Of a stretch of 64,000 bases of DNA, positions 19,520 to 56,693 are shown piece by piece; positions within the stretch are counted from its first letter, which is position 1, and each line of letters opens with the position of its first letter. The translations under genes were made by a program, and so were the position numbers. Below the pieces are notes generated by a model, which saw only the letters and a program-made list of their open reading frames with translations, had not been told where the DNA came from and did no database searches. The DNA is from Sedimentisphaerales bacterium (GTDB lineage Bacteria > Planctomycetota > Phycisphaerae > Sedimentisphaerales > SM23-30): contig CAXXFK010000042.1 of NCBI GenBank assembly GCA_963663965.2, forward strand, positions 182,613 through 246,612, given 5' to 3'.

Positions 19520-19532
19520 CCAGGGGTATCCT

Positions 19533-25424: not shown

Positions 25425-25434
25425 TGGGTATATT

Positions 25435-25986: not shown

Positions 25987-26075
25987 TAGATTACATTTTG
26001 AAATTTGATCCTGACGAACATGAAGAATGTTTCAACCCGATTCGTTGACCCGTTCGTTTATCCCAAAATTATCAT

Positions 26076-27431: not shown

Positions 27432-27571
27432 TCTTATTCTTTGCGGCGGATAGGGTTGGCAAAATGCCAGTTGCTCACTGTACATATGTGATTCTTTAAA
27501 AACAACATTTTCGGTAAGGCGTGCTTAATAAGTTGTTTGTCAAGCCCAAATACCGTTGAGGACTTAAAACA

Positions 27572-28738: not shown

Positions 28739-28909
28739 TGGTGAAGGGAAATGCCAATGGGGTACACAGGTAGAAATGGGAATATCGCTTATCATGCTGA
28801 CAGACGAAGGTTCCGTTGAGGATCGAATGTCCCGTCAGCTTTGTTTCGTTGAATGTCACCCAATGAAAAAGTACTCGTTATTCTTTAAAACATGAAATAA
28901 TCGAATTTA

Positions 28910-32872: not shown

Positions 32873-33133
32873 ATACGCAATACTATTAAAAGAGATAATG
32901 CTCTTTTTCTTTGATTTTGGTCTGCAATAATATGCCAGGGATGCTTTGCCGGGTTTCTGGCACAAATCGTGATGACTTCTATGATGAGCCTGATCCATTA
33001 GCCGTGAATATATTTGTGCCATTTGTAGTCAAAAAGGGCGATTGTAACCGTTGAATGAGGATGCTAATTCTTTTGGATTTGTATGCAAATCAAGGCTGAC
33101 CGGATAAGTTTTTTAAATGACAGGAGTTAGTTT

Positions 33134-34198: not shown

Positions 34199-34224
34199 TG
34201 GCGCCGGATTGATTTTCAGTAATC

Positions 34225-35379: not shown

Positions 35380-35420
35380 GTTAGATAATTATTTGCAGTA
35401 AGAAAACGATATAAATAAAA

Positions 35421-36431: not shown

Positions 36432-36459
36432 TCAAAGGCATTTAGAGGAGTATTATATC

Positions 36460-37230: not shown

Positions 37231-37295
37231 CATGTCGTAAAATGTAAGGGAAATTCCTAACTGCTTGAATTTTATCCATCCCATTTGATGAGACT

Positions 37296-38390: not shown

Positions 38391-38515
38391 GCGGACTCAT
38401 GATCCTATGACCAATCAAACCATTTTGCGTGTCAGAAATCGGCTCAAAACCGATAAATCATCGCTCACTTGGCGCCATATTATGAATCGCAATGACGGAA
38501 CTTGAATTATTCAGC

Positions 38516-38562
38516 TTAGGGGCTGTCCATAAATAAATACAGCATTTATCTTTCAGGCCTTT
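38516..38562. repeat. Short palindromic element, family B, copy 1
   Basis: TTAGGGGCTGTCCATAAATAAATACAGCATTTAT aligns without gaps to the reverse complement of the element at 46943-46994. Confidence 0.55.
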
Positions 38563-38622
38563 TCCCATTTTCCGGTGTTTACTGGCCTGTCATACGGTTT
38601 AAAATCTTTTCTGGAGCCAATC

Positions 38623-39492
38623 ATGAAAGGCATCATCCTCGCCGGCGGTAGCGGCACCCGCCTCTATCCCATGACCCAGGTGGTCAGTAAACAACTACTG
38701 CCTGTTTATGATAAACCCATGATCTATTATCCACTCACCACGCTCATGCTGGCCGGCATCCGCGAGATATTACTGATTTCCACCCCGCACGACCTGCCCC
38801 GGTTTCAGGAGCTATTAGGCGATGGCTCTCAGTGGGGCCTTGAACTGAGCTATGCCGAGCAACCCCGTCCCGAAGGCCTGGCCCAGGCCTTCCATATCGG
38901 CCGCGCATTTATCGCCGGCGGCCCGGCCTGCCTGGTCCTGGGCGATAACATCTTTTTTGGCGCCGGTCTGTCTGCCAAACTCCAGCGCGCCGCCCAGCTT
39001 AAAGAGGGCGCCACTGTCTTTGGCTATTGGGTTGAAGATCCCGAGCGTTATGGTGTTGTCGAATTTGATGCGGATAAAAAAGCCATATCCATTGAAGAAA
39101 AGCCTAAGCAACCTAAATCCAGCTACGCCGTGGTAGGACTCTATTTCTACGACAGCCAAATAACGGATATTGCCGCTGCCGTTAAACCATCGGCCCGCGG
39201 CGAGCTTGAAATTACCGATGTCAATAATGCCTATCTCAAACAGGGCCAGCTTAATGTCGAACTGCTTGGCCGCGGCATGGCCTGGCTCGACACCGGTACC
39301 GCCGATTCACTGCTGGAAGCAGGTAATTTTGTTGCCACCATCGAAAAACGCCAGGGTCAGCAAATTGCCTCTCCCGAAGAAATCGCCTGGCGCATGGGCT
39401 GGATCACTAAAGACCAGTTCCTCACCCGCGTGCAGCAGCTGGGCAAGAGTCAGTATGGACAGTATCTGGCCCATCAGATTAAGCGGCCATAA
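38623..39492 (+). CDS. rfbA: Glucose-1-phosphate thymidylyltransferase
   Basis: [56 protein letters not shown] upstream. Confidence 0.97.
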
Positions 39493-39562
39493 AAATTGCC
39501 ACTGATACCGCTGAAACAAGGATAGAATATATGGATGATGTTGAATTGTTGATTGGCCATTA

Positions 39563-39970
39563 TTGAATAAAGGGAGTGTGAATCTGGAAAAATATCAGGA
39601 TTATAAGCATAGCGATATTACTGGGAAAATTAATCGATGTGCCGTTATCGTATTTGACAAGCTTGGATGGGGATTTCTCGAAAAAGTATACGAAAATACC
39701 ATGGCTATCGAATTGGAAAAGTTGGGTATAGCATTTGAAGTACAAAAACCTCTTTCTATCTACTACGATCAAAAGATCATTGGCGATTATTATGCCGATA
39801 TTGTTGTTGATGATAAGGTAATAGTTGAATTGAAGGCCTGTAAAGCACTTGAAGAGATACATTATGCCCAACTTTATAATTATCTGCGAGCAACAGGTAT
39901 TGAAGTGGGTCTTTTAATCAACTTTGGACAGAAGCTGGATATCAAACGAAGGGCCATATACAAGAATTAA
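39563..39970 (+). CDS. GxxExxY protein (PD-(D/E)XK-like fold)
   Basis: GFLEKVY motif, ADIVVDDKVIVELKA, AQLYNYL, GLLINFG. Confidence 0.92.
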   Translation: MNKGSVNLEKYQDYKHSDITGKINRCAVIVFDKLGWGFLEKVYENTMAIELEKLGIAFEVQKPLSIYYDQKIIGDYYADIVVDDKVIVELKACKALEEIHYAQLYNYLRATGIEVGLLINFGQKLDIKRRAIYKN

Positions 39971-40025
39971 ACTATTACCATGTATCCTTGTTTCAGTGGC
40001 TATTATTTCTTTTAAGGTGTAAAAA

Positions 40026-41033
40026 ATGAGTAAGTTATTTGTAACCGGTGCCGCGGGCTTTATCGGGTCCAACTTCGTTCGTCTCATTCTCAACGAAACT
40101 TCCGATTATGAAGTTATCGCCTTCGATTCCCTCACCTACGCCGGGAACCTGGCCAACCTGGCTGAATTTGAAGGCAATCCCCGCTATCAGTTCATCAAAG
40201 GGGACATCTGTGATGAGGACCAGGTTAATGAATTACTTTCCGGTGTCGATATTCTGGTCAACTTTGCCGCCGAGAGTCATGTCGACCGGTCGATCATGTC
40301 TTCCGAACCTTTCGTGCGGACCAATATCGAAGGAACCCGCATCTTGATTGACGCCGCCCGGCGACATAACATCCAGCGCTACCTGCAGGTTTCCACCGAT
40401 GAAGTTTATGGTTCGCTGGGTAAAACCGGTCTTTTCACCGAAACTACCCCGCTGGCCCCCAACAGTCCCTACAGCGCTTCCAAAGCCGCCGCCGACCTGC
40501 TGGTTATGGCCTATCATCATACCTATGGCTTCCCCGCGCTCATTACCCGCTGTTCCAATAATTACGGTCCCTACCAGTTCCCTGAAAAGCTGATCCCGTT
40601 GTTTGTAACTAATTTGCTGGAAGAAAAGAAAGTTCCCGTCTATGGCGATGGCATGCAGGTCCGCGACTGGATCCATGTCATGGACCATTGCCGGGCGATT
40701 CTCACGGTCATCGAAAAAGGCCGCGACGGCCAGGTTTATAACATTGGTGGTGAAAACGAACAATATAACTTGACGATAACAAAACTAATCCTCCAGGCCC
40801 TTGGCCGGGATGAATCCTTTATTGAGCATGTTAAAGACCGGTTGGGCCACGATCGTCGTTATGCCATCGATCCGACCAAAACCCGTGACGAACTGGGTTG
40901 GCGCCCCCAGATCCCTTTCGAGCAGGGTCTCAAAGAGACTATCGAGTGGTACCTGTCCAACAAAACCTGGTGGCGTGAGATCAAGTCGGGAGAATACATG
41001 CATTATTATGAAAAACAGTATGTGACTCGATAA
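40026..41033 (+). CDS. rfbB: dTDP-glucose 4,6-dehydratase
   Basis: TGAAGFIGSNF, AAESHVDRS, STDEVYG, YSASK, NNYGPYQFPEKLIP, GHDRRY. Confidence 0.97.
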   Translation: MSKLFVTGAAGFIGSNFVRLILNETSDYEVIAFDSLTYAGNLANLAEFEGNPRYQFIKGDICDEDQVNELLSGVDILVNFAAESHVDRSIMSSEPFVRTNIEGTRILIDAARRHNIQRYLQVSTDEVYGSLGKTGLFTETTPLAPNSPYSASKAAADLLVMAYHHTYGFPALITRCSNNYGPYQFPEKLIPLFVTNLLEEKKVPVYGDGMQVRDWIHVMDHCRAILTVIEKGRDGQVYNIGGENEQYNLTITKLILQALGRDESFIEHVKDRLGHDRRYAIDPTKTRDELGWRPQIPFEQGLKETIEWYLSNKTWWREIKSGEYMHYYEKQYVTR

Positions 41034-41054
41034 GAAAGTTGTAGTAAAAAAACA

Positions 41055-41930
41055 ATGAGCAGTAATCAGGGAATCCTTATCTTTGGCGCTACCGGCATGC
41101 TGGGCAGTGAAGTTGTCCGACAATGCCAGGCTCGTGAATTGCCCATGGTTCTGGCCACCTGGCCAGATCAACCGCAAGGGGCCCATAAGGCTGATATAAC
41201 CAATCAGGACCAGGTCAACCAACTGATTGCTGATACTCAACCAACTGCGGTGATTAACTGCTGCGCCTGGACGGATGTGGATGGCGCTGAAACGAATGAA
41301 TCCGTGGCAACCACTGTAAATGGCACTGGAGTTGGCTATCTGGCTCAGGCCTGTCATCAGATGGAGGCCAAACTAGTCCATGTCAGCACTGATTATGTCT
41401 TTGCCGGCGATGGCGCACGACCGTATCAACCCGACGATCCTGTCGCTCCGGCCGGTGCCTATGGCCGTAGCAAACTCGCCGGCGAACAGGCCATCCAGAA
41501 AGTAGGGGGGCACTATGCCATTATCCGCACTTCCTGGTTGTTCGGCGCCGGTGGCAAAAACTTTGTCGATACGATTGTCCAGATCGCCCGTCAGCGTGAA
41601 TGCATTAAAGTCGTCAATGACCAGGTTGGCTGCCCAACCTGGACCGTGGATCTGGCCCGCTGCCTGATCGATTTTGCCTTAAATGATGATCAGGGCATCT
41701 TCCATTTTTGTAATCCACCCCAATGTACCTGGTATGACCTGGCCTGCGAAGCGATTCGAATTGCCGCAGTTAGTTGTCAGGTTCAACCTTGTACAACGGC
41801 CGAATTCCCGCGTCCGGCTCCCCGGCCCGCCTGGTCGGTAATGGACTGCACCAAAACATTCGCCGCACTGAACTGGCAACCCCGTCCCTGGCAGCAGGCC
41901 GTTAAAGATTGCTTGAAAGACAAAATGTAA
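41055..41930 (+). CDS. rfbD: dTDP-4-dehydrorhamnose reductase
   Basis: GATGMLG, STDYVF, YGRSK, RTSWLF, DQVGCPT, RPAPRP. Confidence 0.95.
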   Translation: MSSNQGILIFGATGMLGSEVVRQCQARELPMVLATWPDQPQGAHKADITNQDQVNQLIADTQPTAVINCCAWTDVDGAETNESVATTVNGTGVGYLAQACHQMEAKLVHVSTDYVFAGDGARPYQPDDPVAPAGAYGRSKLAGEQAIQKVGGHYAIIRTSWLFGAGGKNFVDTIVQIARQRECIKVVNDQVGCPTWTVDLARCLIDFALNDDQGIFHFCNPPQCTWYDLACEAIRIAAVSCQVQPCTTAEFPRPAPRPAWSVMDCTKTFAALNWQPRPWQQAVKDCLKDKM

Positions 41931-41955
41931 AATTTACGATGCAAAATGCAAAATG
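41921..41955. repeat. Five heptamers (consensus YAAAATG), left arm of the inverted repeat around the four-helix-bundle gene
   Basis: caaaatg taaaatt tacgatg caaaatg caaaatg; includes the rfbD stop and the next ATG. Confidence 0.8.
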
Positions 41956-42321
41956 AAAAAATATGACATTTATGACAAAACATTCCAGTTCAGTGTTGAC
42001 AATGTCCGGTTATGCAATCACTTGTTCAAATATCGGGATGCGAGAACTGTTATTGCTCGTCAGCTTGTACGATCAGGCACTTCAATTGGAGCCAATCTTG
42101 AAGAAGGTCAGGCTGCCCATAGTCGACCGGATTTTATTTTTAAGTTAACCATTGCTCTCAAAGAGGCACGTGAAAGCCATTACTGGTCGAAATTGTTGAA
42201 AGTTACGGCTAGTGAACATAAAGATGAAATTGATCCATTAATACGCCAGGTTAAAGAGTTAATTGCGATTTTAACTACCATTATCAAGAACACCAAACAA
42301 AATAACAAGACTAACAAGTGA
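41953..42321 (+). CDS. Four helix bundle protein (23S rRNA intervening-sequence protein family)
   Basis: QLVRSGTSIGANLEEG, DFIFKLTIALKEARESHYW. Confidence 0.93.
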   Translation: MKKYDIYDKTFQFSVDNVRLCNHLFKYRDARTVIARQLVRSGTSIGANLEEGQAAHSRPDFIFKLTIALKEARESHYWSKLLKVTASEHKDEIDPLIRQVKELIAILTTIIKNTKQNNKTNK

Positions 42322-42342
42322 TAGAGGTTCTCTTGCTTTCCC

Positions 42343-42377
42343 AATTTTGCATTTTACATTCTGCATTTTAAATTCCA
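42343..42377. repeat. Five heptamers (consensus CATTTTR), right arm of the inverted repeat
   Basis: aattttg catttta cattctg catttta aattcca; reverse complement of the left-arm unit. Confidence 0.8.
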
Positions 42378-42384
42378 ATTCCTT

Positions 42385-43383
42385 GTGAATCATCTGGTAA
42401 ATAATAATTTGAAAGACATCCACGCCGTCATTCTGGCCGGTGGTACCGATTTTGGCCGTTGCCGCCTGACCTCCCGTCTCCCGGCAGCGTTCTGGCCGAT
42501 AATCGGTAAACCGGCGTTGATTCGCGCTATTGAGGATTTGTCGCGGCAGGGAATCACCCGCTTCACGATCTGTTATTCCGGTCAGGGCGGCAAAATTCAA
42601 GAGCTTCTGGGGCAGTGTGAAGAGGATATCTCGGTTGAAATTTTTATCGAAAACATGCCCCTGGGGACTGGGGGTTGTTTACGGGAGGTTGCCAGAAAAA
42701 ATGAAGCGCCCGCCTATTTCCTCTGTCAGGGAAATCTTTCTGCGATCATGCCGCTGGCCCCGGTTATGACTGAATTTCAGCATCATTCCGGCAGTCTTAC
42801 CGTCCTGATCAACGGGCTCGAATCACCCCATCGACCTAACCGAAAAATTGTGGCCGGTTACTTGTGCGGCCGACAGGTCATTGAACATATTACTCTGGAA
42901 GGATACTGTGATATCAAAGAGGCCTTGGTTCCCAAACTGGCCAAACTGGGGCAACCGGTTTATGCCATTCATCTTGCAGATTCTGTCGGTCCCTTTCGCG
43001 ACTGGCCCGGTTACTTAAGAACCACGCCACTGGCCATGCAACGGTTTTTTGAAAAACGTGATCTCGACATGTATGGTAGTACTCCTATATCGGATTGTGC
43101 CTGGATCAGCGCTCAAGCTAAGATAGCGCCAACTGCTCGCCTGGTAGGCCCTGTTATTGTGCTCGATGACGTTGATATCTCGGATAAAGCGATTGTGATC
43201 GGGCCCACCGTGTTGAGCAAAGGAGTACGTATTGGTTCAGGGGCATTGGTTGACAGTTCTGGCCTCTGGGAGGGCGCTCGGGTCGGCCCTGGAGCCATGA
43301 TACAGCGTTCCCTCCTAGACCGTGGCGCCAGGATTTCTGCTAAAACTGAAATCATCGATCAGTACGTCGATGGATCATTTTGA
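42385..43383 (+). CDS. NDP-sugar pyrophosphorylase-like protein (nucleotidyltransferase + left-handed beta-helix) with degenerate active-site motifs
   Basis: AVILAGG, WPIIGKP, ENMPLGTGG and C-terminal hexapeptide repeats; no GxGTRL or EKP motif. Confidence 0.8.
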   Translation: MNHLVNNNLKDIHAVILAGGTDFGRCRLTSRLPAAFWPIIGKPALIRAIEDLSRQGITRFTICYSGQGGKIQELLGQCEEDISVEIFIENMPLGTGGCLREVARKNEAPAYFLCQGNLSAIMPLAPVMTEFQHHSGSLTVLINGLESPHRPNRKIVAGYLCGRQVIEHITLEGYCDIKEALVPKLAKLGQPVYAIHLADSVGPFRDWPGYLRTTPLAMQRFFEKRDLDMYGSTPISDCAWISAQAKIAPTARLVGPVIVLDDVDISDKAIVIGPTVLSKGVRIGSGALVDSSGLWEGARVGPGAMIQRSLLDRGARISAKTEIIDQYVDGSF

Positions 43384-43439
43384 GATTCGCTATTGTGAAA
43401 TTGTGGTTAAACAAGAATAATTTATAAGGGACATAGAAG

Positions 43440-44462
43440 TTGCCTATCTGGGTATGGATATTATTTGTGTTTTTTGCTGCTTTGCCTTTTATTGTTTTAG
43501 GCGTCTGGCTGTTTATTACGCGTGATTATTCAACCAATGAACCGCTCCAGGCCGAAAGCTTAACTGTTGACGCCTTTACTAATCAGCCCGGTTTGCTTGC
43601 CATGATGGCCGCTCTGGTTGCGGTTTATCTCTGGACCTGGTGGCCCACCTTCGGCAGTCTCTGGCAGATCTGGATGCGTAGTGATGAATATTCCTGCGGT
43701 TTGCTGGTCTTTCCACTAGCCATCTATGCCGGTTTCAACCGCAAGCGTGGCTTGCGTTCCACACCGGTCCGGCCATTCCTTTGGGGATTGCTGTTTCTAG
43801 GCATCACCCATGTCTTCCGTTGTGTTTTCGGTCTCTATTATGGATTCGGCTCTATCGATCGCATGTCGATCGTTGTCGGCTTTATTTTTCTGGTCATGAC
43901 GACCGCCGGGTTGCGTTTCACCTGGAAAGTCTGGCCCTTGTTGATTTATCTCTACCTGATGCTGCCCCTGCCCAATCGCGTTCATGCCATGATCGCCGGC
44001 CCCTTACAGCATTATTCCACGATTTCCGCCGTTTTCGTGTTGGAAACACTGGGCTATGGCGCCGTGCGACAGGGCAATGTGATCCAGATCGGCGATACCA
44101 CCGTCGCGGTGGCCGAAGCCTGCAACGGCCTGCGCATGCTCACTGCCTTTTTCGTCATCAGTGGCCTGGTTGTCCTGATCGTCAACCGCCCCTGGTGGCA
44201 AAAACTGGTCATCCTGCTAACCACCATTCCCATTAGCTTTCTTTGCAACACCATTCGCCTGGCCATCACCGCCATTGCTTTTACCATGATAAACACCCAG
44301 GGCTGGGAAAAGGTCTTTCACGACTTCGGCGGCTATGCCATGATGCCTCTGGCCCTTGCCATGGTTGTTCTGGAACTCTGGTTTATGAAAAAATTGGTAG
44401 TGACTGACGAAGACAACAAACCCAGGGAACAAATCATTCATTTTAATGCGAAAAATAATTAG
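43440..44462 (+). CDS. Exosortase (EpsH/archaeosortase family transpeptidase)
   Basis: Multi-TM protein with the Cys-Arg-His triad VAEACNGLR, NTIR, FHD. Confidence 0.93.
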   Translation: MPIWVWILFVFFAALPFIVLGVWLFITRDYSTNEPLQAESLTVDAFTNQPGLLAMMAALVAVYLWTWWPTFGSLWQIWMRSDEYSCGLLVFPLAIYAGFNRKRGLRSTPVRPFLWGLLFLGITHVFRCVFGLYYGFGSIDRMSIVVGFIFLVMTTAGLRFTWKVWPLLIYLYLMLPLPNRVHAMIAGPLQHYSTISAVFVLETLGYGAVRQGNVIQIGDTTVAVAEACNGLRMLTAFFVISGLVVLIVNRPWWQKLVILLTTIPISFLCNTIRLAITAIAFTMINTQGWEKVFHDFGGYAMMPLALAMVVLELWFMKKLVVTDEDNKPREQIIHFNAKNN

Positions 44463-44572
44463 GCGCTCGGCGATAGTCTGAAGTTATCAGTAATTTTGAA
44501 AAATGCTTCTCTGACAACGATTAGCAATAACGAATGACCACGATTCTGTAATTCGAAGAAAAGAGGACTCTT

Positions 44573-46936
44573 ATGAATACTGAAATCAACCGTTACGACG
44601 ATTTCGAAATCAATTCCCATTATATGCGTAATTTCCCTCCCGAGGAAAACCAGATGAATGCATCCAACAACCTTGTCGGCGACCTGCTCCGGCGCTGGAA
44701 ATTGATCCTGCTGATATTTATTCTTATCGGTTCGGTCGGAATCCCGGCCGTTTGGCTGTTTATCCCCGACCAGTATCAGGCGATCGCGCAGGTCCAGATT
44801 AAACCGGTGATCAATAGTTTTTTGTTTAGCGATGCCGAAATGGGTGAGTCTATGCCGGCTTATGATAGCTTCCGCAACACCCACGCCGAATACATGACCT
44901 GTCCGATTGTTGTCACTGAAGTCGCCAACCTGCTTGCCAAGAGTGATTTGTCAATCTTCAGGCCTGCCCCCAAAGGACTTAAAAATCTGCTGAAAGAAAT
45001 CTGGGCCTCCAAGGACATTACTCTTTTGACAAAAAAGAATCTGGATAGAGAGGAAGTATTGAAAGCGCTGGTAAGAAACGGGAAGATCAAGGCGGTGCCT
45101 AAGCGAAACAGTGAAATGACCATGCTGGTGTTCGAACATACGGATCCGGAAGAGGCGTTAACGGTGGTTAAGGCGTTTTCTCAGGCGTATATGACTAAAA
45201 TCGTAAAGCCGATGGAGCAAAAAACTCAGCTATTAAACAATCTGCAAACCGAACAGGATAACGTGCGAAGAGATGTGTTTGATGTGGAATCGAAGATTCA
45301 AACAATTGCTTCAAAACATGGCTCGCGGGATTTGCAGAAATTACAGGAAATCACGTTAAACCGGATTTCGGACTTACAGAATCAACTGGCCAAAATGGAA
45401 TTGGAACAGCTTGATTTAAATAATATGATTAGCTCGCTTGAAAAAGAAGAAGTGTTGTCTGACAAAGAGGATATTTTTAAAATAGAACAGGAAAATCTCC
45501 AGAAATTAAAACTGTATGTCAATAGTGATCCGCGAATTCAGAGCCTGACCCAGAATATCATTCAGGCAGAAGAACGGTTGATTATCGCGCAGCAGGAACT
45601 CAGCCCTGAAAATCCAGAACTCAAGCGTATGGAAAAACTCATTGAAACCCTGAATAATAAATTGGATGAAAGAAAACGGGTTTTGGAGGATGAATATGAA
45701 GGAGTCAGTTTGGTTTTAAATAAGGAAGGTGAAACTCCGGATCAGGAAACGCTTATCAAAAATCAGAGAAAAAAAATCCTGAATGATGAATTGGTTAAAT
45801 TGAATGAAAACATTGAACTGCTCTCTGCTGAGATACAGAAACAGGAAGAAAAATATAAAAGTATCGGATTGGATCAACTGGAGATGTTAGACCTGAAAGA
45901 TAAACTGACGTTGACAAAAACAGTTTATGATAGAATTCAGAATAAAATCCAGGCGATTGACATCGAATCCGACAAGAGACCGGGACGTATTGAAACGCCT
46001 TATGAACCCTCATCGGTTGAAATGGCGAATAAAAAGATGAAACTTCTGGCCGGCGTCGTATTTGCGGCCCTCGGCGCTGGGGTGGGTTTCGCCTTCCTGT
46101 TGTCCAAATTGGATAAGAGCCTCCGTACGCCCATGGATGTCACCCGTCGCATCGGCGTCCCGGTCATCGGCACGACCATCAGTGTCGATCGTGTCGATCG
46201 CAAATTGCTGCCGGAATATCTTAATAATGATTATCAGAATATTCGAGCGAACCTCAATATCCTCAGCCAGGGCAAAAATCTCAAACGCCTGGTTGTCGCC
46301 AGCGCCGGACCGCGGGAAGGCAAGACGACACTGGCCATCAACCTGGCGGCGTCCCTCTCCCAGACGGGCCAGAAAGTCCTGCTGATCGATGGCGATTTTA
46401 GAAAACAGGGAGTGAAACATACCCTGCGTCTGCCGGTCGAACTGCGTGGTTTTTACGAGGTGGTCATGGGCGATTGTGCCATAGAAGATGCGATTTATTT
46501 TTATCCGAATGCCGGTTTCAGCGTCATGGTTGGCAGTTGCCGGATGGGTTTTGATCCGGTCGATCTGCTCTCCAGACCCCAGACCATCGAAATCCTCGAT
46601 ATCATCGCCCGCCAATACGATCATATCATTATCGATACTCCGCCGGTTCTGGTCGCTCCCGATGCCGTCCTGTGGGGTAAACTTTCCGACGCGGTGGTCC
46701 TCAGCAGTTTCGCCGGAACCACTGCCGCTCCGGCCCTCAAAGAGGTTCTGGATAAATTTGCCGCCGCCCGTGTCAAAGTGCTGGGCAATGTCCTGGGCAA
46801 TGTGGATAGCCGCTCTATATATGGCTACTATGGTTATGGTTACGGTTACGGCCCGGATGCGGCCAGGAAACGTATAAACGCCATCACCGATAGCAGTTCG
46901 CTGCTCATTCAACATGATACTGGCGAAATGTCCTGA
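44573..46936 (+). CDS. wzc: Polysaccharide co-polymerase / tyrosine autokinase
   Basis: Two TMs flanking a coiled coil, Walker A GPREGKTT, LLIDGD, IIIDTPP, C-terminal YGYYGYGYGY cluster. Confidence 0.93.
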   Translation: MNTEINRYDDFEINSHYMRNFPPEENQMNASNNLVGDLLRRWKLILLIFILIGSVGIPAVWLFIPDQYQAIAQVQIKPVINSFLFSDAEMGESMPAYDSFRNTHAEYMTCPIVVTEVANLLAKSDLSIFRPAPKGLKNLLKEIWASKDITLLTKKNLDREEVLKALVRNGKIKAVPKRNSEMTMLVFEHTDPEEALTVVKAFSQAYMTKIVKPMEQKTQLLNNLQTEQDNVRRDVFDVESKIQTIASKHGSRDLQKLQEITLNRISDLQNQLAKMELEQLDLNNMISSLEKEEVLSDKEDIFKIEQENLQKLKLYVNSDPRIQSLTQNIIQAEERLIIAQQELSPENPELKRMEKLIETLNNKLDERKRVLEDEYEGVSLVLNKEGETPDQETLIKNQRKKILNDELVKLNENIELLSAEIQKQEEKYKSIGLDQLEMLDLKDKLTLTKTVYDRIQNKIQAIDIESDKRPGRIETPYEPSSVEMANKKMKLLAGVVFAALGAGVGFAFLLSKLDKSLRTPMDVTRRIGVPVIGTTISVDRVDRKLLPEYLNNDYQNIRANLNILSQGKNLKRLVVASAGPREGKTTLAINLAASLSQTGQKVLLIDGDFRKQGVKHTLRLPVELRGFYEVVMGDCAIEDAIYFYPNAGFSVMVGSCRMGFDPVDLLSRPQTIEILDIIARQYDHIIIDTPPVLVAPDAVLWGKLSDAVVLSSFAGTTAAPALKEVLDKFAAARVKVLGNVLGNVDSRSIYGYYGYGYGYGPDAARKRINAITDSSSLLIQHDTGEMS

Positions 46937-46942
46937 TGGGAC

Positions 46943-46994
46943 TTAAGCGGCCGCAGTTAAATAAATGCTGCATTTATTTATTTACGGTCCCTAA
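46943..46994. repeat. Short palindromic element, family B, copy 2
   Basis: Perfect 11-bp IR TAAATAAATGC-T-GCATTTATTTA (46958-46980), ending in ACGGTCCCTAA. Confidence 0.6.
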
Positions 46995-47199
46995 ATGGTA
47001 ATTGTTATCTTTAATTGTCTGGTTGGCATGCAAGTAAAAGCCGGGCCAGACACTGACATCGTTACGCCTGATCTGTTTAGTCTCTTACGAGTGAAATCTT
47101 ACGCAAAATGGCAAAGATATCTCGACAGGGAGGCGGATGCCAATGTGACCCTGTTGGGCTCCGGCACTGCCGGTTTAGGATTGGATTAATTATCAGCTA

Positions 47200-48849
47200 A
47201 TGCTTGTTCTTATGTTCAATAACATCCCGGGGACTCATCCCGAGGCAGACGTTCTGAATACCATGTTTACCCAAACGGGTCCGTTTGGGCCAACACTGTT
47301 AAATCATCTGTGCTCTGTCAACGCGGCATTGTTCAATAGCAACCAGGTCAGTTTGGCCAATCCGCCTGTTGATCTGGAGGGATTTGAATGTTTCTCGGAA
47401 AATAACGGGACAATTAATATCCCTTTGCCAGACCGTCATAACGATTCCGAATCAAGTTGGTTGTTCCTCACTAACGGCAATTATCTGGCCCAGACTGATC
47501 CCATATGGCTACAGGAATTACTGGCCAGCCGGCATCATGAAGTTGTTTTCCTGACCGTCGATCCCGAACTCAGTTCGTTTCGCGAAAAAGTACGTTATAA
47601 CCAGCAGGGACAAATCATCGGTTTTCGTCGTCATTATGCCGATGTGGCCTGGCAAGACGACCTGCCGGATAACTGGCCTCATCATATCCTGGTCCGAAAA
47701 TCAGCTGTCCAGAAAATGCTTTGCCAGGGACAACTCCAGTTGAATTTGAACTTCGGTCAGTTCCTTGATCGTTGTGGCCAGATCGGTGTCAAGTTTCATT
47801 CTCTACGGATTGCGGGATTTTTGACGGACTTGAATAATTCCGGCGAATTGCGTGAGCTGACCCGGGTCGTTTTACAAAACAATCCGTTGGCCCCGATAAA
47901 ATTGAATTCCCATGAAAGCTTAAGTCAGAATGATTCCCCCTGCCTGTTTGGCCGCATCAGCCGGGGACACAATGTCCGGATTGACTCGAGTGCAATTATT
48001 ATCGGCCCCACAGTCATCGGTGATAATGTAACGATTGGCCCGGATAGTATCATCAGGAGCGCTGTCATTCCATCCGGTGCGACGGTTTCTGCCCATCAGG
48101 TGATCGATAGTTGTGTCCTGCCTGCCCCCGGGCGGTGCTCACTGGCCGGCGCGCCCCGTAATCCCACGCCCGACTGGTTGTTGCCCGGTCCGCCCCCGCG
48201 AACCCAGTGGTATAAATCATGGCCGAAATATTCTTACGTTGAGTTGTATAAGCGTTGGGCCGATATCGCGTTTTCACTGATAATCCTGACCTTGTTTCTG
48301 CCATTTTTCCCGATTGTGGTTGCCGCCATCAAAATCAATTCTCCCGGTCCGATTTTTTTTAAACATAAACGACAGGGACGCTATGGCCGAGAATTCGGCT
48401 GTATCAAGTTCCGCACGATGATGAAAGACGCCGATAAAATGCAGGATCAGCTGCGCTTGCTTAACCGTAATCAAGTCGACGGTCCGCAATTTAAAATGGA
48501 AAATGATCCTCGTGTCAGTACCGTGGGAAAATTCCTGCGGGATACTTCCATTGATGAAATTCCTCAATTCATCAATGTCCTCATGGGACAGATGAGCGTG
48601 GTAGGCCCACGTCCGTCGCCCGAACGTGAAAATACCTTTTGCGCCAGTTGGCGTGATGCCCGTCTTTCCGTTCGACCCGGTATTACCGGTCTCTGGCAGG
48701 TCTGTCGTACCCGTGAAGAAGGACGGGATTTTCAGGAATGGGTTGTCCACGATACCCGTTATGTCAGGGAAGTTAACTGGAAACTCGATATCTGGATCTG
48801 CTGGAAAACCGTCATTTATATTATCAAAAGTATTCTTGATAAATTCTGA
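47200..48849 (+). CDS. Priming sugar (phosphoglycosyl) transferase fused to an N-terminal degenerate nucleotidyltransferase/beta-helix region
   Basis: C-terminal KRWADI, KFRTM, DPRVS, IDEIPQFINVLMGQMSVVGPRP, RPGITGLWQV; hexapeptide repeats upstream. Confidence 0.92.
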   Translation: MLVLMFNNIPGTHPEADVLNTMFTQTGPFGPTLLNHLCSVNAALFNSNQVSLANPPVDLEGFECFSENNGTINIPLPDRHNDSESSWLFLTNGNYLAQTDPIWLQELLASRHHEVVFLTVDPELSSFREKVRYNQQGQIIGFRRHYADVAWQDDLPDNWPHHILVRKSAVQKMLCQGQLQLNLNFGQFLDRCGQIGVKFHSLRIAGFLTDLNNSGELRELTRVVLQNNPLAPIKLNSHESLSQNDSPCLFGRISRGHNVRIDSSAIIIGPTVIGDNVTIGPDSIIRSAVIPSGATVSAHQVIDSCVLPAPGRCSLAGAPRNPTPDWLLPGPPPRTQWYKSWPKYSYVELYKRWADIAFSLIILTLFLPFFPIVVAAIKINSPGPIFFKHKRQGRYGREFGCIKFRTMMKDADKMQDQLRLLNRNQVDGPQFKMENDPRVSTVGKFLRDTSIDEIPQFINVLMGQMSVVGPRPSPERENTFCASWRDARLSVRPGITGLWQVCRTREEGRDFQEWVVHDTRYVREVNWKLDIWICWKTVIYIIKSILDKF

Positions 48850-48974
48850 TCCCATGATAAGATCATCTGATAATGGTGGATATAGTCTGCCTAAAGCGGA
48901 ATGTTCATTTTTTTGTTGTCCGAATCAATCATCTGGATATGCCAATCCGACTGAACCTGAAAGGGTAAAATCCA

Positions 48975-51900
48975 ATGTCAAAAGGACGTATCAATTGGCC
49001 CGTTATTATTGTAGCCATTCTGGCGATTGCCGTTGTCGCCGGATCCGCCATAGGTCTGCGCGCCTGGAACCGGTCTAATCGTATGATCCAGGGAAAAACC
49101 CAGGGGCTTAAAGCCTGGGATGAACAGCGCTGGAACGATGCGGCTTCCTTTCTCGGAAGATATCTGGAGGTCAAACAGGGGCTGGATGTTGATGACCCCG
49201 AATACCCGGTCTATCAGGATATCCTCTATAAATATGCCCAGGCTCAACTCAAGATCAGACCCCGCAGTCGGGGGAATTTAACCCAGGCGGTGAACGCCTT
49301 CAACATCCTCCTGCGGGCTGACTGGAACAAATTAAATGATGAAGGCAAGGTGAACTACCTGACTTCGGCGAATTCTCTGGCTGAAATTTATATTCGTCAG
49401 CAGCCCGGTGAGGCTGTTTCTGTTTGTGAACGGGTTATCAAGGCGGTCGAAGACACTGATTTCGAAAAACTGTCAATAGACCGGAAGGATAAGGATATTT
49501 TCTGGGAACTGCACCAAAAACACCTCATAGCTCTGACGCTCCAGCGAAAGTACCCGCAAGCGGGCGAAGAAGCTCTGGCGATCCTGGCAAAGAAACCTGA
49601 TCTGATTATTGCCTATGAAATCATGGCTCAGGTGGTGGATAAAGAACCTGAAAAATTTGAGGGTTCCAGTATTGACTGGCTCAACAAAGCCGTCCAGAAC
49701 AATCCGGAGCTATCCCAGGCCTGGCTTGTCCGGGCTGCTTATTACAATAATCTGGCCGGGAAAAATCGGCGCAATCAGGAATTGGTTGCAAAATATATCG
49801 GCCAGGCCCTCTCAGATACCCTGAAAGCGGTTGCCTTGCAGCCCGGCGAAATAAATCTGAAAATTCAGGCCGCGTTGCTTTTAAATCAACTGGATAAACC
49901 TGATGATCCTCAGCGGTCTGGATTAAGGCAGCAGGCTCAGGGTATTTTAAACGAGGTTCAGCAGGAGGATCCTCTATCTCTGGCCCTTTGGAATGCCCGC
50001 CTGGTCATGGCGAGTACTGGAGGGAGTGATCAGCAGGTTGCCGAAGTGGTTGACCAGGCGCTGGCGACCCTGACCTGGCAGAAGTGGGATCTCTATCCTC
50101 AAGCGATCGAAATATATATTCAGGCGGATGAATTGGATAAGGCGGATTCCCTGATCAAAGAAATACGTGATTCTAAGATGATGGAATCCGATGTTGCGTT
50201 CTGGCAGGGATGGGTTGCCATGCGGCGCAACGAAGTTCAAACCGCCCGGGAATCCTTCGAAAGGGCTTATGGTTTGGGTCAGAAAGATATCCGTATCCGC
50301 CTGTTTATGGCCCAACTTTACGCTCAGATTGGCGATCTGCTCACCGCAGAGTATCACCTCCGGGCATTGGTTGCCGAAAATACTAAAAGCGCCGCATTAC
50401 GCTTGGCATTAGCCCGGTTGCTCATGCAGCGTGGCAATTATCTCGATGCCGAAGTTCATGCCCAGGAAGCGGCCCGACTCGATCCCGCCAATGGCGAAGC
50501 CGCGGTTCTGGTTATACAGGCCCGCTTGCGAAATATCGAAAGTCAGAATCGGGATCCCGATCCGGTTTCCTGGCGGAATCTTAAAGCAAGTGTCCAGAAT
50601 ATGGCTCAGGGTGTTCCGGAGTCGACCAGTATCAAACTGCTTCAATTTAGAGTGGCCTTGCAGGAAAAACAATACGATCAGGCTCGCCAGATCCTTCAGC
50701 AGGCAGCCCTGGCAGCCCAGGCAGCTCAGTCCGAGTCGGACAGCCTGGCGGTTAAGATTGCCGAAGTCGAACTGATGATCGAACAGCATCAGGATGAGCA
50801 GGCGATCGCCAGACTGAATGAATTTATCTCGGAATACCCGGATAACACCAGCTTGGTTACGGTGCTGGTGCAATCCTATCTGAAAAACAAACGCTACGCC
50901 GAATGTGAATTGGTTCTGCGGGAAGCCTTGACTCGATTTGAAAAACCCATACAGAAACGCGAACTGGCGCTTCAGCTTGCCGATATTTATGATCTTTCGG
51001 AACAAAATGATAAGGCCCGTGAATTGCTTCAGACCATGGATACCCAGCTTAAAGAGGATATCCCCCTCAAACGCCGGCGTCTTAATTACCTGGATCTGGA
51101 TATCGCTCAGATTATAGAACGGCGAAATGGTATCCTGAGCAACGATAAAAAAGCCCGCACTCCCGAGCTTGATGACCAGGAACAGCAGTTGCGTCAGCAG
51201 GCCCAGGTCATTATCGACCAGATCAAGGCCATTGAAGGCGAAACTTCAGGTTGGCAATGGCGACTGGAACAGGCCCGGCTCTGGATGTTGGGTGATACTT
51301 TTGCCGCCAAACAGTTTGATATTGACAATCTGCTTAATGAAAATGTCAAAAACAATAATTCCGATCAGGATAGCCGGTTGCTGCTGGCCAAAAGCGCCGA
51401 ACGGGCCGGTAAACTCCGTCTGGCCCTGTCTCTCTATCAGGAAGCCTATAGCCGTGCTCCCGGCAGTATTCCGCTTCAGATCGAAATGGCGCGAATGAAT
51501 CTGGCTGTTGGCGATCAAGGCGCGGCTGAAGAATTTATCGACATGCTTAAGAAACGGGACCAGAGTGCCGCGGAAGGTCTCGGTCTGTCTGATGAACAAC
51601 GCGCCATTGTCATGCGGCTGGAAATGTTTTTGCTGAGCCAGAAAGGCGATCTGGATGCGGTCGAAAATATTCTTACCCAGTTTATTAAGGAGAATCCCGG
51701 CGAAATCTCCAATCGTCTGACCATGATCAATTTGAAAATCCGTAATGGTGAGTATGATCAGGCCGAAACGATGCTCCAGGCAATCCGTCAGGAGAATCCT
51801 GATTCCTATGAAGCCGCCGTTATGGAGATCCAACTGGCCAATGTCCGGGGGCAGCAGCAACAGGGTGACGCCGAACGAAAACAGGCGCGGCAGCAAGTAC

Positions 51901-53537
51901 TGGCCTTGAGCGATCAATTGGTCAATCAATTCGGTGGCGACCGGGCCGGGCCCTATCTGATTCGTTCTCAGGCTTATGTCCTCAATGACAATCTGGTTTC
52001 CGCGCGGGCCGATCTTGACAAAGCCGGGCAACTTGAACCGGAAAATCCCGAAGTTTGGAACCGTATCAGTCTGTTTGATGAGATCGAGGGTAAAACGGCC
52101 AATGCCATTGCGGCTTGTCAGAAGGCGCTGGACCTGAGTCCCAACAATGCTGAATTGGCCCGCCGGCTGGTGGCCTTGCATCTGACTTCCGGTGACCCCG
52201 ATCTCCGGATCAAGGGCCGCAATGAATTGCTGCCGGCATTCCTGGAAAAATTCCCCGATCACACCGGGCTTAAATTTATTCAGGTGGGCCTGCTCCTGCA
52301 GGATGACAATCCTAGTATGGTAATGGACGCCGAACGCATTTTGGAAAAAATGGTAGCCGAACAACCGCTGAACCGGCTGGCCTGGAGTATGCTGATCGAT
52401 CGGGCGATGGCGGCCGGGCAGTCTTATAAAGCGGCTGATGAGAAAGACCCGGCTGACATGCAATTCCGTAAGGCGGTAGACTTGGCCAATAAGGCCTTGG
52501 GCTACTTGCCCGATAATGCGGCGTTAATGGTGCAAAAAGCCGCTGCCCAGGAACAAATCACCGGTATTACCGATGCGGAAGTGACCCTGAAACAATTACA
52601 AGAGCTATATAGTTCCAATTTACAGATTGCCGACCGGCTGGCGTCACTCTATATGCGACAGAATAAAATCGATCAGGCCATCGAAATTTATAATAATATG
52701 CTTGCTCACGCCAATTCCGATGATGAAAAAATGACGATCAGCGCCGGCCTGGCTGTCGCCACCTTTATGAAAGGCGAGGAACAGGCGGCTTGGGATCAGC
52801 TTCAGGCCATGCGCAAACAGGCTCCCGATAGTGTGATTCCGGTGATTGCCATGTCCCGGCTCTATGCTCGTCAGAAACAATGGGATCAGATCGCCGCGCT
52901 GGCCGATGCCTGGCATGCGGCCCATCCGGATGATCTTGATGCCCTGCGGCGAATAACAACAGAACTGGTAACTTCCAGGGATAAGCATCCACGCGATCTG
53001 GCCATAAAGTATCTTAACCTGATTGTGGCTAAAGATCCCCGGGATCAGCAATCGGCCCTGTACCTGGCGATCTTCCAGCAAAGTTCTGGTGAATCCAGCC
53101 AGGCCGCCAAAAATTACCAGAATATTCTGGCTCAACAGCCCGATAATTACACCGCCATGAACAATTATGCCTGGATCCTGTGTGAAGAGTTCAAGCAATA
53201 CGATCAGGCCCTCGAAATTGCCAATCGCGGCTTGGCGCTGGCGCCGAACTACCTTGATCTGGTTGATACTCGCGGCATGATCCAGTTTCGGATGGGCAAA
53301 TTCCAAGGGGCGCAGGTGGATTTCAAACGCTGTGTCGATGAATATGCCAAAAGCGCTCCCGGGCGCGTCGGCAGCATGTTTCACCTTGGTCGTACCCTGA
53401 TCAAACTTAATCTCGTCGAGGAGGGGAAACACTGGCTTAGAGAGGCTGAAGTTGCCAGTCAGGCATTTAAGAACTCTCCGATCCCTCCTCTCACTGACAA
53501 CGATCTGGAAGAAATCCGGCAACTTCTTGCTCAATGA
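48975..53537 (+). CDS. Large membrane-anchored tetratricopeptide-repeat protein (1520 aa)
   Basis: N-terminal TM followed by many TPR-like helices (A..L.P.N pattern, NNYAW, DTRG). Confidence 0.88.
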   Translation: MSKGRINWPVIIVAILAIAVVAGSAIGLRAWNRSNRMIQGKTQGLKAWDEQRWNDAASFLGRYLEVKQGLDVDDPEYPVYQDILYKYAQAQLKIRPRSRGNLTQAVNAFNILLRADWNKLNDEGKVNYLTSANSLAEIYIRQQPGEAVSVCERVIKAVEDTDFEKLSIDRKDKDIFWELHQKHLIALTLQRKYPQAGEEALAILAKKPDLIIAYEIMAQVVDKEPEKFEGSSIDWLNKAVQNNPELSQAWLVRAAYYNNLAGKNRRNQELVAKYIGQALSDTLKAVALQPGEINLKIQAALLLNQLDKPDDPQRSGLRQQAQGILNEVQQEDPLSLALWNARLVMASTGGSDQQVAEVVDQALATLTWQKWDLYPQAIEIYIQADELDKADSLIKEIRDSKMMESDVAFWQGWVAMRRNEVQTARESFERAYGLGQKDIRIRLFMAQLYAQIGDLLTAEYHLRALVAENTKSAALRLALARLLMQRGNYLDAEVHAQEAARLDPANGEAAVLVIQARLRNIESQNRDPDPVSWRNLKASVQNMAQGVPESTSIKLLQFRVALQEKQYDQARQILQQAALAAQAAQSESDSLAVKIAEVELMIEQHQDEQAIARLNEFISEYPDNTSLVTVLVQSYLKNKRYAECELVLREALTRFEKPIQKRELALQLADIYDLSEQNDKARELLQTMDTQLKEDIPLKRRRLNYLDLDIAQIIERRNGILSNDKKARTPELDDQEQQLRQQAQVIIDQIKAIEGETSGWQWRLEQARLWMLGDTFAAKQFDIDNLLNENVKNNNSDQDSRLLLAKSAERAGKLRLALSLYQEAYSRAPGSIPLQIEMARMNLAVGDQGAAEEFIDMLKKRDQSAAEGLGLSDEQRAIVMRLEMFLLSQKGDLDAVENILTQFIKENPGEISNRLTMINLKIRNGEYDQAETMLQAIRQENPDSYEAAVMEIQLANVRGQQQQGDAERKQARQQVLALSDQLVNQFGGDRAGPYLIRSQAYVLNDNLVSARADLDKAGQLEPENPEVWNRISLFDEIEGKTANAIAACQKALDLSPNNAELARRLVALHLTSGDPDLRIKGRNELLPAFLEKFPDHTGLKFIQVGLLLQDDNPSMVMDAERILEKMVAEQPLNRLAWSMLIDRAMAAGQSYKAADEKDPADMQFRKAVDLANKALGYLPDNAALMVQKAAAQEQITGITDAEVTLKQLQELYSSNLQIADRLASLYMRQNKIDQAIEIYNNMLAHANSDDEKMTISAGLAVATFMKGEEQAAWDQLQAMRKQAPDSVIPVIAMSRLYARQKQWDQIAALADAWHAAHPDDLDALRRITTELVTSRDKHPRDLAIKYLNLIVAKDPRDQQSALYLAIFQQSSGESSQAAKNYQNILAQQPDNYTAMNNYAWILCEEFKQYDQALEIANRGLALAPNYLDLVDTRGMIQFRMGKFQGAQVDFKRCVDEYAKSAPGRVGSMFHLGRTLIKLNLVEEGKHWLREAEVASQAFKNSPIPPLTDNDLEEIRQLLAQ

Positions 53538-55124: not shown

Positions 55125-55748
55125 ATGAAAAAGTTAATTTTTTTACTTGCACTTGTGTTCTTTATTGTGCCGGCGTCCGCAAACGTGACGCTCGAAATAG
55201 GTGGGCCTCCAGTCAACGTGACGTTTGCAAGCCTTTATGGGCATTCCCCTGCGGGCATCTATAATCTTAATGTTGAAGGCACCTTAGTTAAAGCTTTCTG
55301 CATTGATCTGAAGCAAACTTCGCCTTATTATGGTGGCATGTACGATGTTGTTGAGCTTAAAGATGCCCCCAAACCGTATGGCACTTATCCGAACTACCCA
55401 ATGCTCGAAACCAGAGCCAATAAAATCGCCAGTTTATGGGCGCAGTATTATAGTTCAGTTGATACGCTGGCGGAAGCTTCTGCATTTCAAATTGCAGTTT
55501 GGGAAATTGCCGTCGATAATAATGATGGTCTTGGAGCCGGGGATTACATGTATTCTGGGGTAGATTTAGCTTTAGCGAATACCTATCTGACGGAAATTAA
55601 TTGGCAATCCGGTATGGCTGGTGGTCTGGTAGCTTTAGTGAGTGATGATTACCAGTGCTATGTTACACAAGTTCCTGCTCCAGGCGCCATTATCTTAGGT
55701 GGCTTGGGCACGGCTTTCGTCGGCTGGATTCGTCGTCGTAAAGCCTGA
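55125..55748 (+). CDS. PEP-CTERM-type (VPAPG) exosortase substrate with thioester-domain-like motifs
   Basis: AGGAG SD, signal peptide MKKLIFLLALVFFIVPASA, C-terminal VPAPGAIILGGLGTAFVGWIRRRKA; FCIDL, FQIAVW and DYQCY motifs. Confidence 0.88.
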   Translation: MKKLIFLLALVFFIVPASANVTLEIGGPPVNVTFASLYGHSPAGIYNLNVEGTLVKAFCIDLKQTSPYYGGMYDVVELKDAPKPYGTYPNYPMLETRANKIASLWAQYYSSVDTLAEASAFQIAVWEIAVDNNDGLGAGDYMYSGVDLALANTYLTEINWQSGMAGGLVALVSDDYQCYVTQVPAPGAIILGGLGTAFVGWIRRRKA

Positions 55749-55818
55749 ATAATAATTGCATAGGATTTCTGTTTAAATTTGCTGGGCAAATGTGAATTTG
55801 CCTGCTTACAAACAAAAT

Positions 55819-55855
55819 GGCGCTGAAAGGGACCCCCTTTTCAACGCCTTTTTTT
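55819..55855 (+). terminator. Rho-independent terminator between the convergent PEP-CTERM genes
   Basis: GGCGCTGAAAGGG-accc-CCTTTTCAACGCC followed by T7. Confidence 0.8.
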
Positions 55856-55952
55856 CTATATCTCGTACCGGTATGGCTAAAGTGCGCATTAAAAAAGCGA
55901 CAACTGTTCAAGCTGCCGCTCTGGTTATTCTATGATGCCTGCGACTTTGGTC

Positions 55953-56693
55953 TTATTTCATATTCTTTCGCTGACGGATCCAGCCGACAAACATTGTGCC
56001 AAGACTGCTCAGCAACAACGCGCCTGGCGCCGGTACCGTGCCTTCGCCGACATAGCACTGATAGTTATCGCTGACATAAGCCCGCAGATTGATTGGGTCA
56101 GCATCGATATTTCCATCCAGACTGTTCAGCCAGCCCTGAGCCATATTCAAGGCATTGTCGAAATTCGTCTGGCTGGCACCTGGGGCATAGTCATTGGTCG
56201 CCCAGAAGCCGTTTCCACTGGAAAGATCATAAGCGGCGCCTTTTTCTTCGTGTACGATTTCCCAGATAGCCAACTGGAATGCGGCGGCGGTAACGCCATT
56301 TGACACACTGGCAATGTTTTCCGCCCATAACTCTCTGATATCATTTGCCTTCTTGTTATTCATCGGATAAATATCGTTGCCGTCATTGTCATCATAAGGT
56401 CTGGGGGCGTCTTGCAGGGCTACGATTTCATAGGGAACAGTATTCGTCGTTGCGTTCTGGCGAAGGTCGATGCAGAATACGCGTTCATGCGTGCCGTTAA
56501 CCAGAATATCATAGATACCAGCTGTTCCGGCATAATCACGGCTATAGGCTGGAGTGGCCCCGGTGCTTTGGAAATGGACTGATTTGCAACTAATTCCAGA
56601 GATAACTTTCTGGAAATCAACCGAAACGGTTGGATTCGCCATTGCCGGGACTGCGATTGCCAGTGCAATCAATGTCATCATAATTTTCTTCAT
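55953..56693 (-). CDS. PEP-CTERM-type (VPAPG) exosortase substrate, paralog of 55125-55748
   Basis: Signal peptide MKKIMMTLIALAIAVPAMA, C-terminal VPAPGALLLSSLGTMFVGWIRQRK; FCIDL, FQLAIW and NYQCY motifs. Confidence 0.88.
   Translation of the reverse strand: MKKIMMTLIALAIAVPAMANPTVSVDFQKVISGISCKSVHFQSTGATPAYSRDYAGTAGIYDILVNGTHERVFCIDLRQNATTNTVPYEIVALQDAPRPYDDNDGNDIYPMNNKKANDIRELWAENIASVSNGVTAAAFQLAIWEIVHEEKGAAYDLSSGNGFWATNDYAPGASQTNFDNALNMAQGWLNSLDGNIDADPINLRAYVSDNYQCYVGEGTVPAPGALLLSSLGTMFVGWIRQRKNMK

Follow-up and report, generated by a model that had tools for sequence, protein, structure and literature searches.

Two convergent genes beside an exopolysaccharide locus

The window, a 64,000-nucleotide stretch of a Sedimentisphaerales genome (GenBank assembly GCA_963663965.2, contig CAXXFK010000042.1), carries two convergent genes whose products, P0001 and P0002, are 38% identical (Table 1). 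Both proteins begin with a signal peptide of ~19 residues (judged by eye), which is followed by a mature domain of 163 residues in P0001 and 200 in P0002, and by a tail in which VPAPG, a hydrophobic stretch and a basic end succeed each other from residue 183 (P0001) or 220 (P0002). Three short motifs occur in the same order in the two domains, namely FCIDL (Cys59 in P0001, Cys74 in P0002), FQ[IL]A[VI]WE (Gln122–Trp126 and Gln140–Trp144, respectively) and [DN]YQCYV (Gln177 and Gln212, respectively), the Gln of the last motif being only 6–8 residues away from the sorting motif. A preliminary description of the locus had reported this motif order and this signal peptide, domain and VPAPG-TM-basic architecture in two convergent paralogs, and all of its elements are present.

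Table 1. Features of the window and related genes elsewhere in the genome (contig prefixes mark genes outside the window).
Feature	Position	Strand	Basis or remark
P0001 gene, 207 aa: signal peptide, TED-fold domain, VPAPG-type PEP-CTERM tail	55125..55748	+	
P0002 gene, 246 aa: signal peptide, TED-fold domain, VPAPG-type PEP-CTERM tail	55953..56693	-	
P0001 mature TED-fold domain, residues 20-182	55182..55670	+	model
P0002 mature TED-fold domain, residues 20-219	56037..56636	-	model
P0001 Cys59 (FCID motif), predicted thioester Cys	55299..55301	+	
P0002 Cys74 (FCID motif), predicted thioester Cys	56472..56474	-	
P0001 FQIAVWE central-helix motif, TQxxhW equivalent	55485..55505	+	helix in model
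P0001 Gln177 (predicted thioester Gln) and Cys178	55653..55658	+	
P0002 Gln212 (predicted thioester Gln) and Cys213	56055..56060	-	
P0002 Cys36, third Cys; absent from P0001 and closest paralog	56586..56588	-	
P0001 VPAPG-TM-basic sorting tail	55671..55745	+	PF07589 17.5 bits, below cut-off of 20.7; tail-class alignment
P0002 VPAPG-TM-basic sorting tail	55956..56036	-	PF07589 below cut-off; tail-class alignment
Terminator-like hairpin and U run after P0001	55812..55860	+	-18.1 kcal/mol, z -4.5
Terminator-like hairpin and U run after P0002	55885..55925	-	-15.6 kcal/mol, z -3.1
Sigma-54-type -24/-12 consensus site, 114 nt upstream of P0002	56792..56807	-	consensus match only
Exosortase, one of two in genome, candidate processing enzyme	43440..44462	+	PF09721 174.7 bits
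Wzy-type EPS locus	17243..53537	+	context; partner role not implied
Further TED-like PEP-CTERM gene, Gln-Cys paralog	C29:30280-31002	-	
Further TED-like PEP-CTERM gene, divergent FCLE...QxAIW...Q[DS] subfamily	C28:306727-307620	+	missed by first profile
Further TED-like PEP-CTERM gene, divergent FCLE...QxAIW...Q[DS] subfamily	C15:200942-201715	+	missed by first profile

The exopolysaccharide (EPS) locus in the window encodes an EpsI-like protein, a flippase, glycosyltransferases, a formyltransferase, an acetyltransferase, two GNAT proteins, Wzc, a priming transferase and a TPR protein, together with the exosortase, two DegT aminotransferases, polysaccharide deacetylase and two FemAB-like proteins that the preliminary description had listed. 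Candidate amine-acylating enzymes are unusually dense between 19533 and 34198 (formyltransferase, hexapeptide acetyltransferase, two GNAT and two FemAB). The operon ends with a 1520-aa TPR protein (48975-53537, + strand) in a position like that of the PrsT-type TPR proteins of PEP-CTERM systems, and just upstream of the locus is a gene for a 3075-aa secreted-type protein (6740-15967, - strand) whose domains include many of the Ig, cadherin-like and PKD types and whose N-terminal region is unannotated. The whole window was also found, with 0 differing letters, in one contig from a public run, which is probably the source sample rather than an independent one. A single 175-nt contig from an RNA library maps on P0001 at 95-99% identity, which is too little to show transcription.

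Predicted fold and comparison with known thioester domains

AlphaFold models of full-length P0002 (pLDDT 87.5) and of the P0001 domain (pLDDT 83.6) each have a β-rich part and three core helices, and so present the barrel and three-helix bundle of a thioester domain (TED). Each model was compared with 48,161 representative chains, and in both cases the best eight matches were all TEDs. These had Z scores of 8.5-11.0 for P0002 (rmsd 3.1-4.1 over 141-165 aligned residues; next match, 4.6) and of 8.8-11.7 for P0001 (rmsd 3.0-4.0 over 135-150 residues; next match, 3.3). Foldseek placed SfbI, CpTIE and Cpa at the top, with a TMq of at most 0.58 for the domain-only model. The structural comparison suggested in the preliminary description thus ranks TEDs first for both proteins, and a non-TED fold was not seen. 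Among the nearest clusters of the ESM Atlas, which are unnamed, one at 0.84 has a TED in 11% of its members, which we take as a lead only.

The sequence motifs of TEDs can be followed on the models. FCID lies at the end of a strand in both, and fits the [YFL]C-hydrophobic-hydrophilic motif. The counterparts of TQxxhW, FQLAIW and FQIAVW, are helical and keep the Gln and Trp, with Phe replacing Thr; according to Walden et al., no residue of this motif is fully conserved (PMC4450167). In the late motif (hydrophobic-Q-hydrophilic-hydrophobic-hydrophobic) the Gln is in place, and the residue that follows is Cys in P0001 and P0002, which is not hydrophilic. We read the register of this Gln from the end-points of the aligned ranges, and for P0001 the alignment ends five residues past Gln177. 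Cpa fits the same register, provided that its Gln is residue 575, as we presume. The alignments likewise end five residues past the thioester Gln of CpTIE (267/272), PnTIE (247/252) and SfbI (261/266), as numbered in PMC4450167. The α0 segment, between strand D and α1, is represented by three-residue helical turns only in both models.

Two classes of TED have been described, of which class II is defined by a ~75-residue β-sandwich insertion after α3 that forms a slipknot (Miller et al., PMC6194298). In the P0001 model, α3 ends at residue 138 and the next strand begins at residue 150, leaving no class II insertion, and the domain is therefore class-I-like. The highest Z scores, 10.2-11.7, were nevertheless to the class II domains BaTIE (6fwv), EfmTIE86 (6fwy) and SaTIE (6fx6), through the common head lobe and by only ~1-2 Z over class I. 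The class I domains (PF08341: SfbI, 5a0l; CpTIE, 5a0g; PnTIE, 5a0n; Cpa, 4c0z/2xi9; FNE, 5dcq) share the barrel and three-helix fold at Z 8.5-9.7, as well as the FC-hydrophobic-acidic motif, the QxxhW helix, the late Gln in register, a short linker (~11 residues) that joins the third helix to the last hairpin, and an N-terminal position after the signal peptide. In contrast to class I domains, P0001 and P0002 (10-18% identical to the solved TEDs) have no stalk domains, carry a VPAPG-type PEP-CTERM tail in place of LPXTG, come from a diderm host, and have Phe for Thr before the helix Gln and Cys (Asp in their family) after the late Gln. Whereas the TIE adhesins of Gram-positive bacteria hold their domain on isopeptide or ester stalks with an LPXTG sortase anchor, here the domain joins the VPAPG tail directly. 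The models give good support to reading P0001 and P0002 as TED-fold domains of minimal size, stalk-less and joined to an exosortase-type tail, in which the FC Cys and the YQC Gln are likely to be the predicted thioester pair. Walden et al. tested twelve TEDs, and every one showed a loss of 17 Da (PMC4450167).

Conservation in the wider family

Conservation was assessed on an alignment of 147 members (138 new top matches and nine from the first search). The Cys, the helix Trp and the late Gln are invariant in 147/147, so that the motifs of P0001 and P0002 are not due to chance; the same holds for the first Pro of the tail, and 145 members retain the helix Gln. Taken with the match to eight solved TED entries and the gap to the next chain, this sustains the earlier reading of the domains as TEDs. 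The distance from Gln to tail is seven in 76/147 members. Since the mature domain has a single Cys in 125 of the 147, a disulfide cannot explain the invariant Cys of the family. In a separate set of 118 genome-derived matches the Cys was present in every one and Cys with Gln in 108, nine of the other ten being unaligned at that column. Cys and Gln are, according to Walden et al., the only fully conserved residues of TEDs (PMC4450167), and a sole invariant Cys together with an invariant late Gln marks such a domain at the level of sequence. No Lys is invariant among the 147 (position 115 is Lys in 90 and Arg in 43), which speaks against a pilin-like self-polymerization.

Profile methods place the family at the edge of what is annotated. 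Pfam TED models match 61 of the 147 members at E≤0.01; P0001 and P0002 score 20.7 and 15 bits against PF08341, under the gathering cut-off of 22, and three relatives lie above it (22.2-26.3 bits). A sequence search of the PDB with P0001 gave 0 matches, and a PDB profile search with the 147 sequences returned no TED and 21 weak, unrelated matches (best E 0.039).

The sorting tail and its cargo class

Both proteins have the PEP-CTERM layout, with a Pro-x-Pro motif (the VPAPG variant), a TM helix (224-245 in the P0002 model) and a basic cluster. They share a signal peptide, a small domain and this C-terminal end with known PEP-CTERM cargo, including the floc-forming PepA (NF033554) and VPLPA-CTERM proteins, and they also have in common with it the many cargo copies per genome and an exosortase in an EPS locus. 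With our own pattern we counted ~74 PEP-CTERM-like genes in this genome (one false match was taken off 75), 28 of them with PAP-type tails, and two exosortases score above cut-off. In this genome, the distinct and highly conserved tail class VPAPGAxLLGxxGxxLVGWxRRR accounts for 28 genes and ordinary VPEP tails for 46; the class is present in 29 of 41 genomes, and one of the two exosortases may be its cognate enzyme. In three relatives (G039, G040 and G008; loci L037, L045 and L160), exosortase ORFs of ~660-680 aa also match a nucleotidyltransferase profile; their counterparts in the window are separate genes (42385-43383 and 43440-44462).

Identity with PepA was ruled out by the NF033554 scores (cut-off 80), which were 19.1 bits for P0001 and no match for P0002; the same family gave no match over cut-off in five betaproteobacterial genomes. 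No NCBIfam family covers the P0001/P0002 domain. A sigma-54-type site precedes P0002, as has been described for pepA (PMC9850573). Such consensus sites are found upstream of P0002 and of its C29 paralog, that is, 2/74 cargo genes (background, 14/3,531), and are absent upstream of the other 72; rpoN is present in the genome. A common sigma-54 regulon for the family was not supported, as only 2/115 TED genes and 2/63 other cargo genes in the fetched loci had a site.

Relationship to exosortases and the EPS locus

The preliminary description proposed that the two proteins form a capsule-anchoring system, in which the thioester would form and take as its acceptor a free amine of exopolysaccharide made by the cell itself, thereby stapling capsule to envelope. 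Support for this idea comes from the position of the genes, since P0001 and P0002 are the only two of the ~74 cargo genes that lie within 12 kb of an exosortase. It also comes from work on other PEP-CTERM proteins, which turn released EPS into cell-bound EPS in Aquincola (PMC9850573) and have been hypothesized in Nostoc to attach to both membrane and polysaccharide (PMC12188702); the binding of EPS to cells by PEP-CTERM proteins is also treated in PMC1569441. A stalk-less build would likewise suit a nearby target.

The remaining TED genes of the genome do not follow this arrangement. Three of the five, including the closest paralog of P0002 (64%), lie at least 24 kb from any scored EPS marker and on contigs without an exosortase. 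Within 25 kb of an exosortase we found 10/38 TED genes as compared with 16/112 genes for other cargo with the same tail (p=0.13, iterated profile; among the matches listed, which are 150 of 202 tail matches from fragmented assemblies, with kin and tandem copies that are not independent). When limited to sequence-inspected genes, a set biased to chosen clusters, the comparison was 10/38 vs. 16/66 (p=0.82). An apparent enrichment of TEDs near exosortases (10/22 vs. 16/128, p=0.0008) arose because the first profile missed divergent TEDs, and it disappeared with the iterated profile. With no significant difference between TEDs and other cargo, proximity is best read as a property of the cargo class and not of the TED.

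The same picture emerges among relatives. Among 51 distinct TED genes from 26 genomes, an exosortase lies close to only 10. An exosortase was found in 41/41 genomes (our genome and 40 relatives), whereas a family match at E≤1e-8 was found in 25, including our own, and in none of the other 16, with at most 71 candidates scored per genome and some matches driven by the tail. Tandem clusters of VPAPG-tail genes follow an exosortase-wzc-priming-transferase block in eight of the 41 genomes (loci L034, L035, L037, L051, L058 and L059 are examples). Five of these clusters, counting relatives and self, include a TED, which speaks for capsule stapling, and three do not; in three relatives the TED-containing clusters are mixed with unrelated cargo. 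In 79 GTDB loci, home-built profiles detected an EPS marker nearby in at least 24 and an exosortase or EpsI in at least eight; for the 34 loci of at least 18 kb, the figures were at least 12 and at least four.

The gene content of the locus bears on the acceptor itself. It had been suggested that the EPS enzymes could generate free amines, and this stands for the deacetylase and the two FemAB-like proteins, which could leave amines. The formyltransferase, the hexapeptide acetyltransferase and the GNATs would, on the other hand, acylate the amino sugars made by the DegT enzymes, and the amine chemistry of the locus is mostly one of capping. In addition, a LuxR-type gene, a terminator-like hairpin and 1.1 kb of AT-rich DNA stand between the EPS operon and the two genes, and the TED literature covered, in its accessible text, names no TED with a glycan target. 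P0001 and P0002 are one of many cargo types of the VPAPG-tail system, and not a dedicated part of the EPS operon. We consider an EPS amine an unlikely acceptor, albeit the one among the alternatives that survives best. A more elaborate version, in which the C-terminus would be anchored to lipid or envelope, the Gln bonded to aminoacylated or deacetylated EPS of the same cell as the missing link between PEP-CTERM proteins and EPS, and the Gln-Cys pair would act in thiol or redox control, is slightly less probable again.

A Gln-Cys variant peculiar to this genome

In 143 of the 147 aligned homologs, Asp follows the late Gln; Cys occupies this position in only three, P0001, P0002 and the paralog on C29, and the 118 genome-derived matches yielded the same three proteins. 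The second Cys, which the preliminary description had made part of the motif, is instead confined to three paralogs, all from this genome. In a quick tree built on 70 of the 147 rows, they fall on one side of a branch with a support of 92, indicating a single origin. The change from Asp to Cys requires two base substitutions. Silent sites between these paralogs are saturated, which marks them as old duplicates, and recent gene conversion is an unlikely source of the common Gln-Cys, as the flanking codons differ.

A Cys in place of the Asp could disturb thioester chemistry. It is therefore conceivable that these three paralogs have TED ancestry and have lost the thioester, with a disulfide to the FC Cys, to Cys36 of P0002 or between chains in the oxidizing periplasm, and that they act as non-covalent surface binders. 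The displacement of a residue kept in 143 relatives, by a two-substitution change that arose once and was retained in such old copies, would agree with this, as would the location of the new Cys, one residue off the site adjoining the FC Cys, and the third Cys of P0002. Against it, all three proteins retain the Gln at 38-64% identity, and the helix Gln and Trp are intact. Neighboring residues of a strand, moreover, normally point to opposite faces. The plain disulfide between the FC and QC cysteines that had been named as an alternative to a thioester thus fails for the family, given its single Cys, and keeps a small chance in the three Gln-Cys paralogs. We regard thioester loss in them as improbable, and marginally more so than an EPS acceptor.

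Proposed mechanism and target

The reading that we favor over these alternatives is that P0001 and P0002 are class-I-like TEDs that likely form their thioester by themselves and then bond a primary amine near the surface, most likely a protein lysine, so that proteins of the envelope or matrix become cross-linked. Based on the predicted fold and the conservation, we give it slightly better than even odds (roughly 50%). As judged from sequence, the proteins would be exported by Sec and lose their signal peptide, and would fold into the barrel and three-helix TED that is predicted with high confidence. Fold, register and invariance suggest that a thioester would then form between Cys59 and Gln177 in P0001, and between Cys74 and Gln212 in P0002, with loss of ammonia. 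By analogy with the PEP-CTERM literature, one of the two exosortases would cleave the VPAPG tail, and the protein would be retained at the surface or in the matrix; the final location of exosortase cargo is unsettled in the available text of that literature (PMC1569441; PMC12188702; bioRxiv 10.1101/2023.06.07.544157). Finally, an amine would receive the acyl group of the Gln, and an isopeptide cross-link would result.

The absence of a stalk, and a Gln so close to the sorting motif, mean that the target of an anchored protein must lie within a few nanometres. While anchored, the domain would have within reach the other proteins of the envelope or matrix, or a surface that it touches directly. 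The characterized target of a TED is described as one particular protein Lys, which is chosen through protein-protein recognition and bonded in a pH-reversible reaction (PMC4450167; PMC13685950); the target identified for SfbI is a protein Lys (PMC4450167).

The short reach also bears on whether the thioester is directed outwards, as a trap or grip for foreign amines on neighbor-cell proteins, predators, phages or surfaces, possibly after release into the matrix. The characterized TEDs, as far as the available text describes them, are all adhesins for foreign targets, one of them serving conjugation in Bacillus subtilis (PMC4450167; PMC8092201), and the 1-5 very divergent paralogs per genome would suit varied outside targets. 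A 3220-aa protein without a PEP-CTERM tail (P0100) has three TED-like copies among SdrD-B-like, DUF11 and RTX repeats, with the TED on SdrD-B-like stalks, a stalked multi-harpoon form that is apparently planctomycete. A stalk-less anchored domain would, however, probably be buried beneath the capsule, and no sign of release was found. We rank this last among the alternatives, and cross-linking of envelope or matrix proteins remains the preferred reading.

Distribution and significance of the family

With a 33-sequence profile that includes the tail, by which the looser counts are inflated, we retrieved 12,229 cluster representatives at E≤0.001, 6,678 at 1e-10 and 1,096 at 1e-30, the last of which sets the minimum size of the family, in clusters at 50% identity. 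The carriers in the 79 GTDB loci, which were found with one planctomycete-biased pattern, are mostly Planctomycetota, and also include Betaproteobacteria, Acidobacteriota and Verrucomicrobiota. Extensimonas soli and Phycisphaera mikurensis are among the carriers with a species name. Two queries of a plasmid collection gave no match. Most named homologs are called 'hypothetical' or have names derived from the tail. One member, MFO0894326.1, is named 'Cys-Gln thioester bond-forming surface protein' by NCBI, and the link to thioesters is thus already latent in automatic annotation.

In the accessible text of the papers concerned, TEDs are described as features of Gram-positive bacteria (PMC4450167; PMC6194298; PMC13685950). 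A full-text literature search, whose scope left out most subscription journals, found no paper that joins thioester domains to PEP-CTERM proteins, and the available portions of PMC9210967, PMC12617251 and PMC8092201 make no mention of thioester PEP-CTERM proteins. The putative TED family on PEP-CTERM tails is widespread and apparently unpublished; the window contributes to it the Gln-Cys variant, along with a test of the EPS link whose outcome was negative.

If our reading is true, covalent harpoon chemistry would be common on the surfaces of environmental diderm bacteria, and PEP-CTERM cargo, for the most part lacking a defined biochemical activity, would gain one for a large class of its members. 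The loss of 17 Da, labeling with an amine probe and the mapping of cross-links would provide a simple assay on how PEP-CTERM proteins tie together cells, EPS and flocs. The domains themselves, at 163-200 residues, would then be candidates for compact protein-ligation tools.
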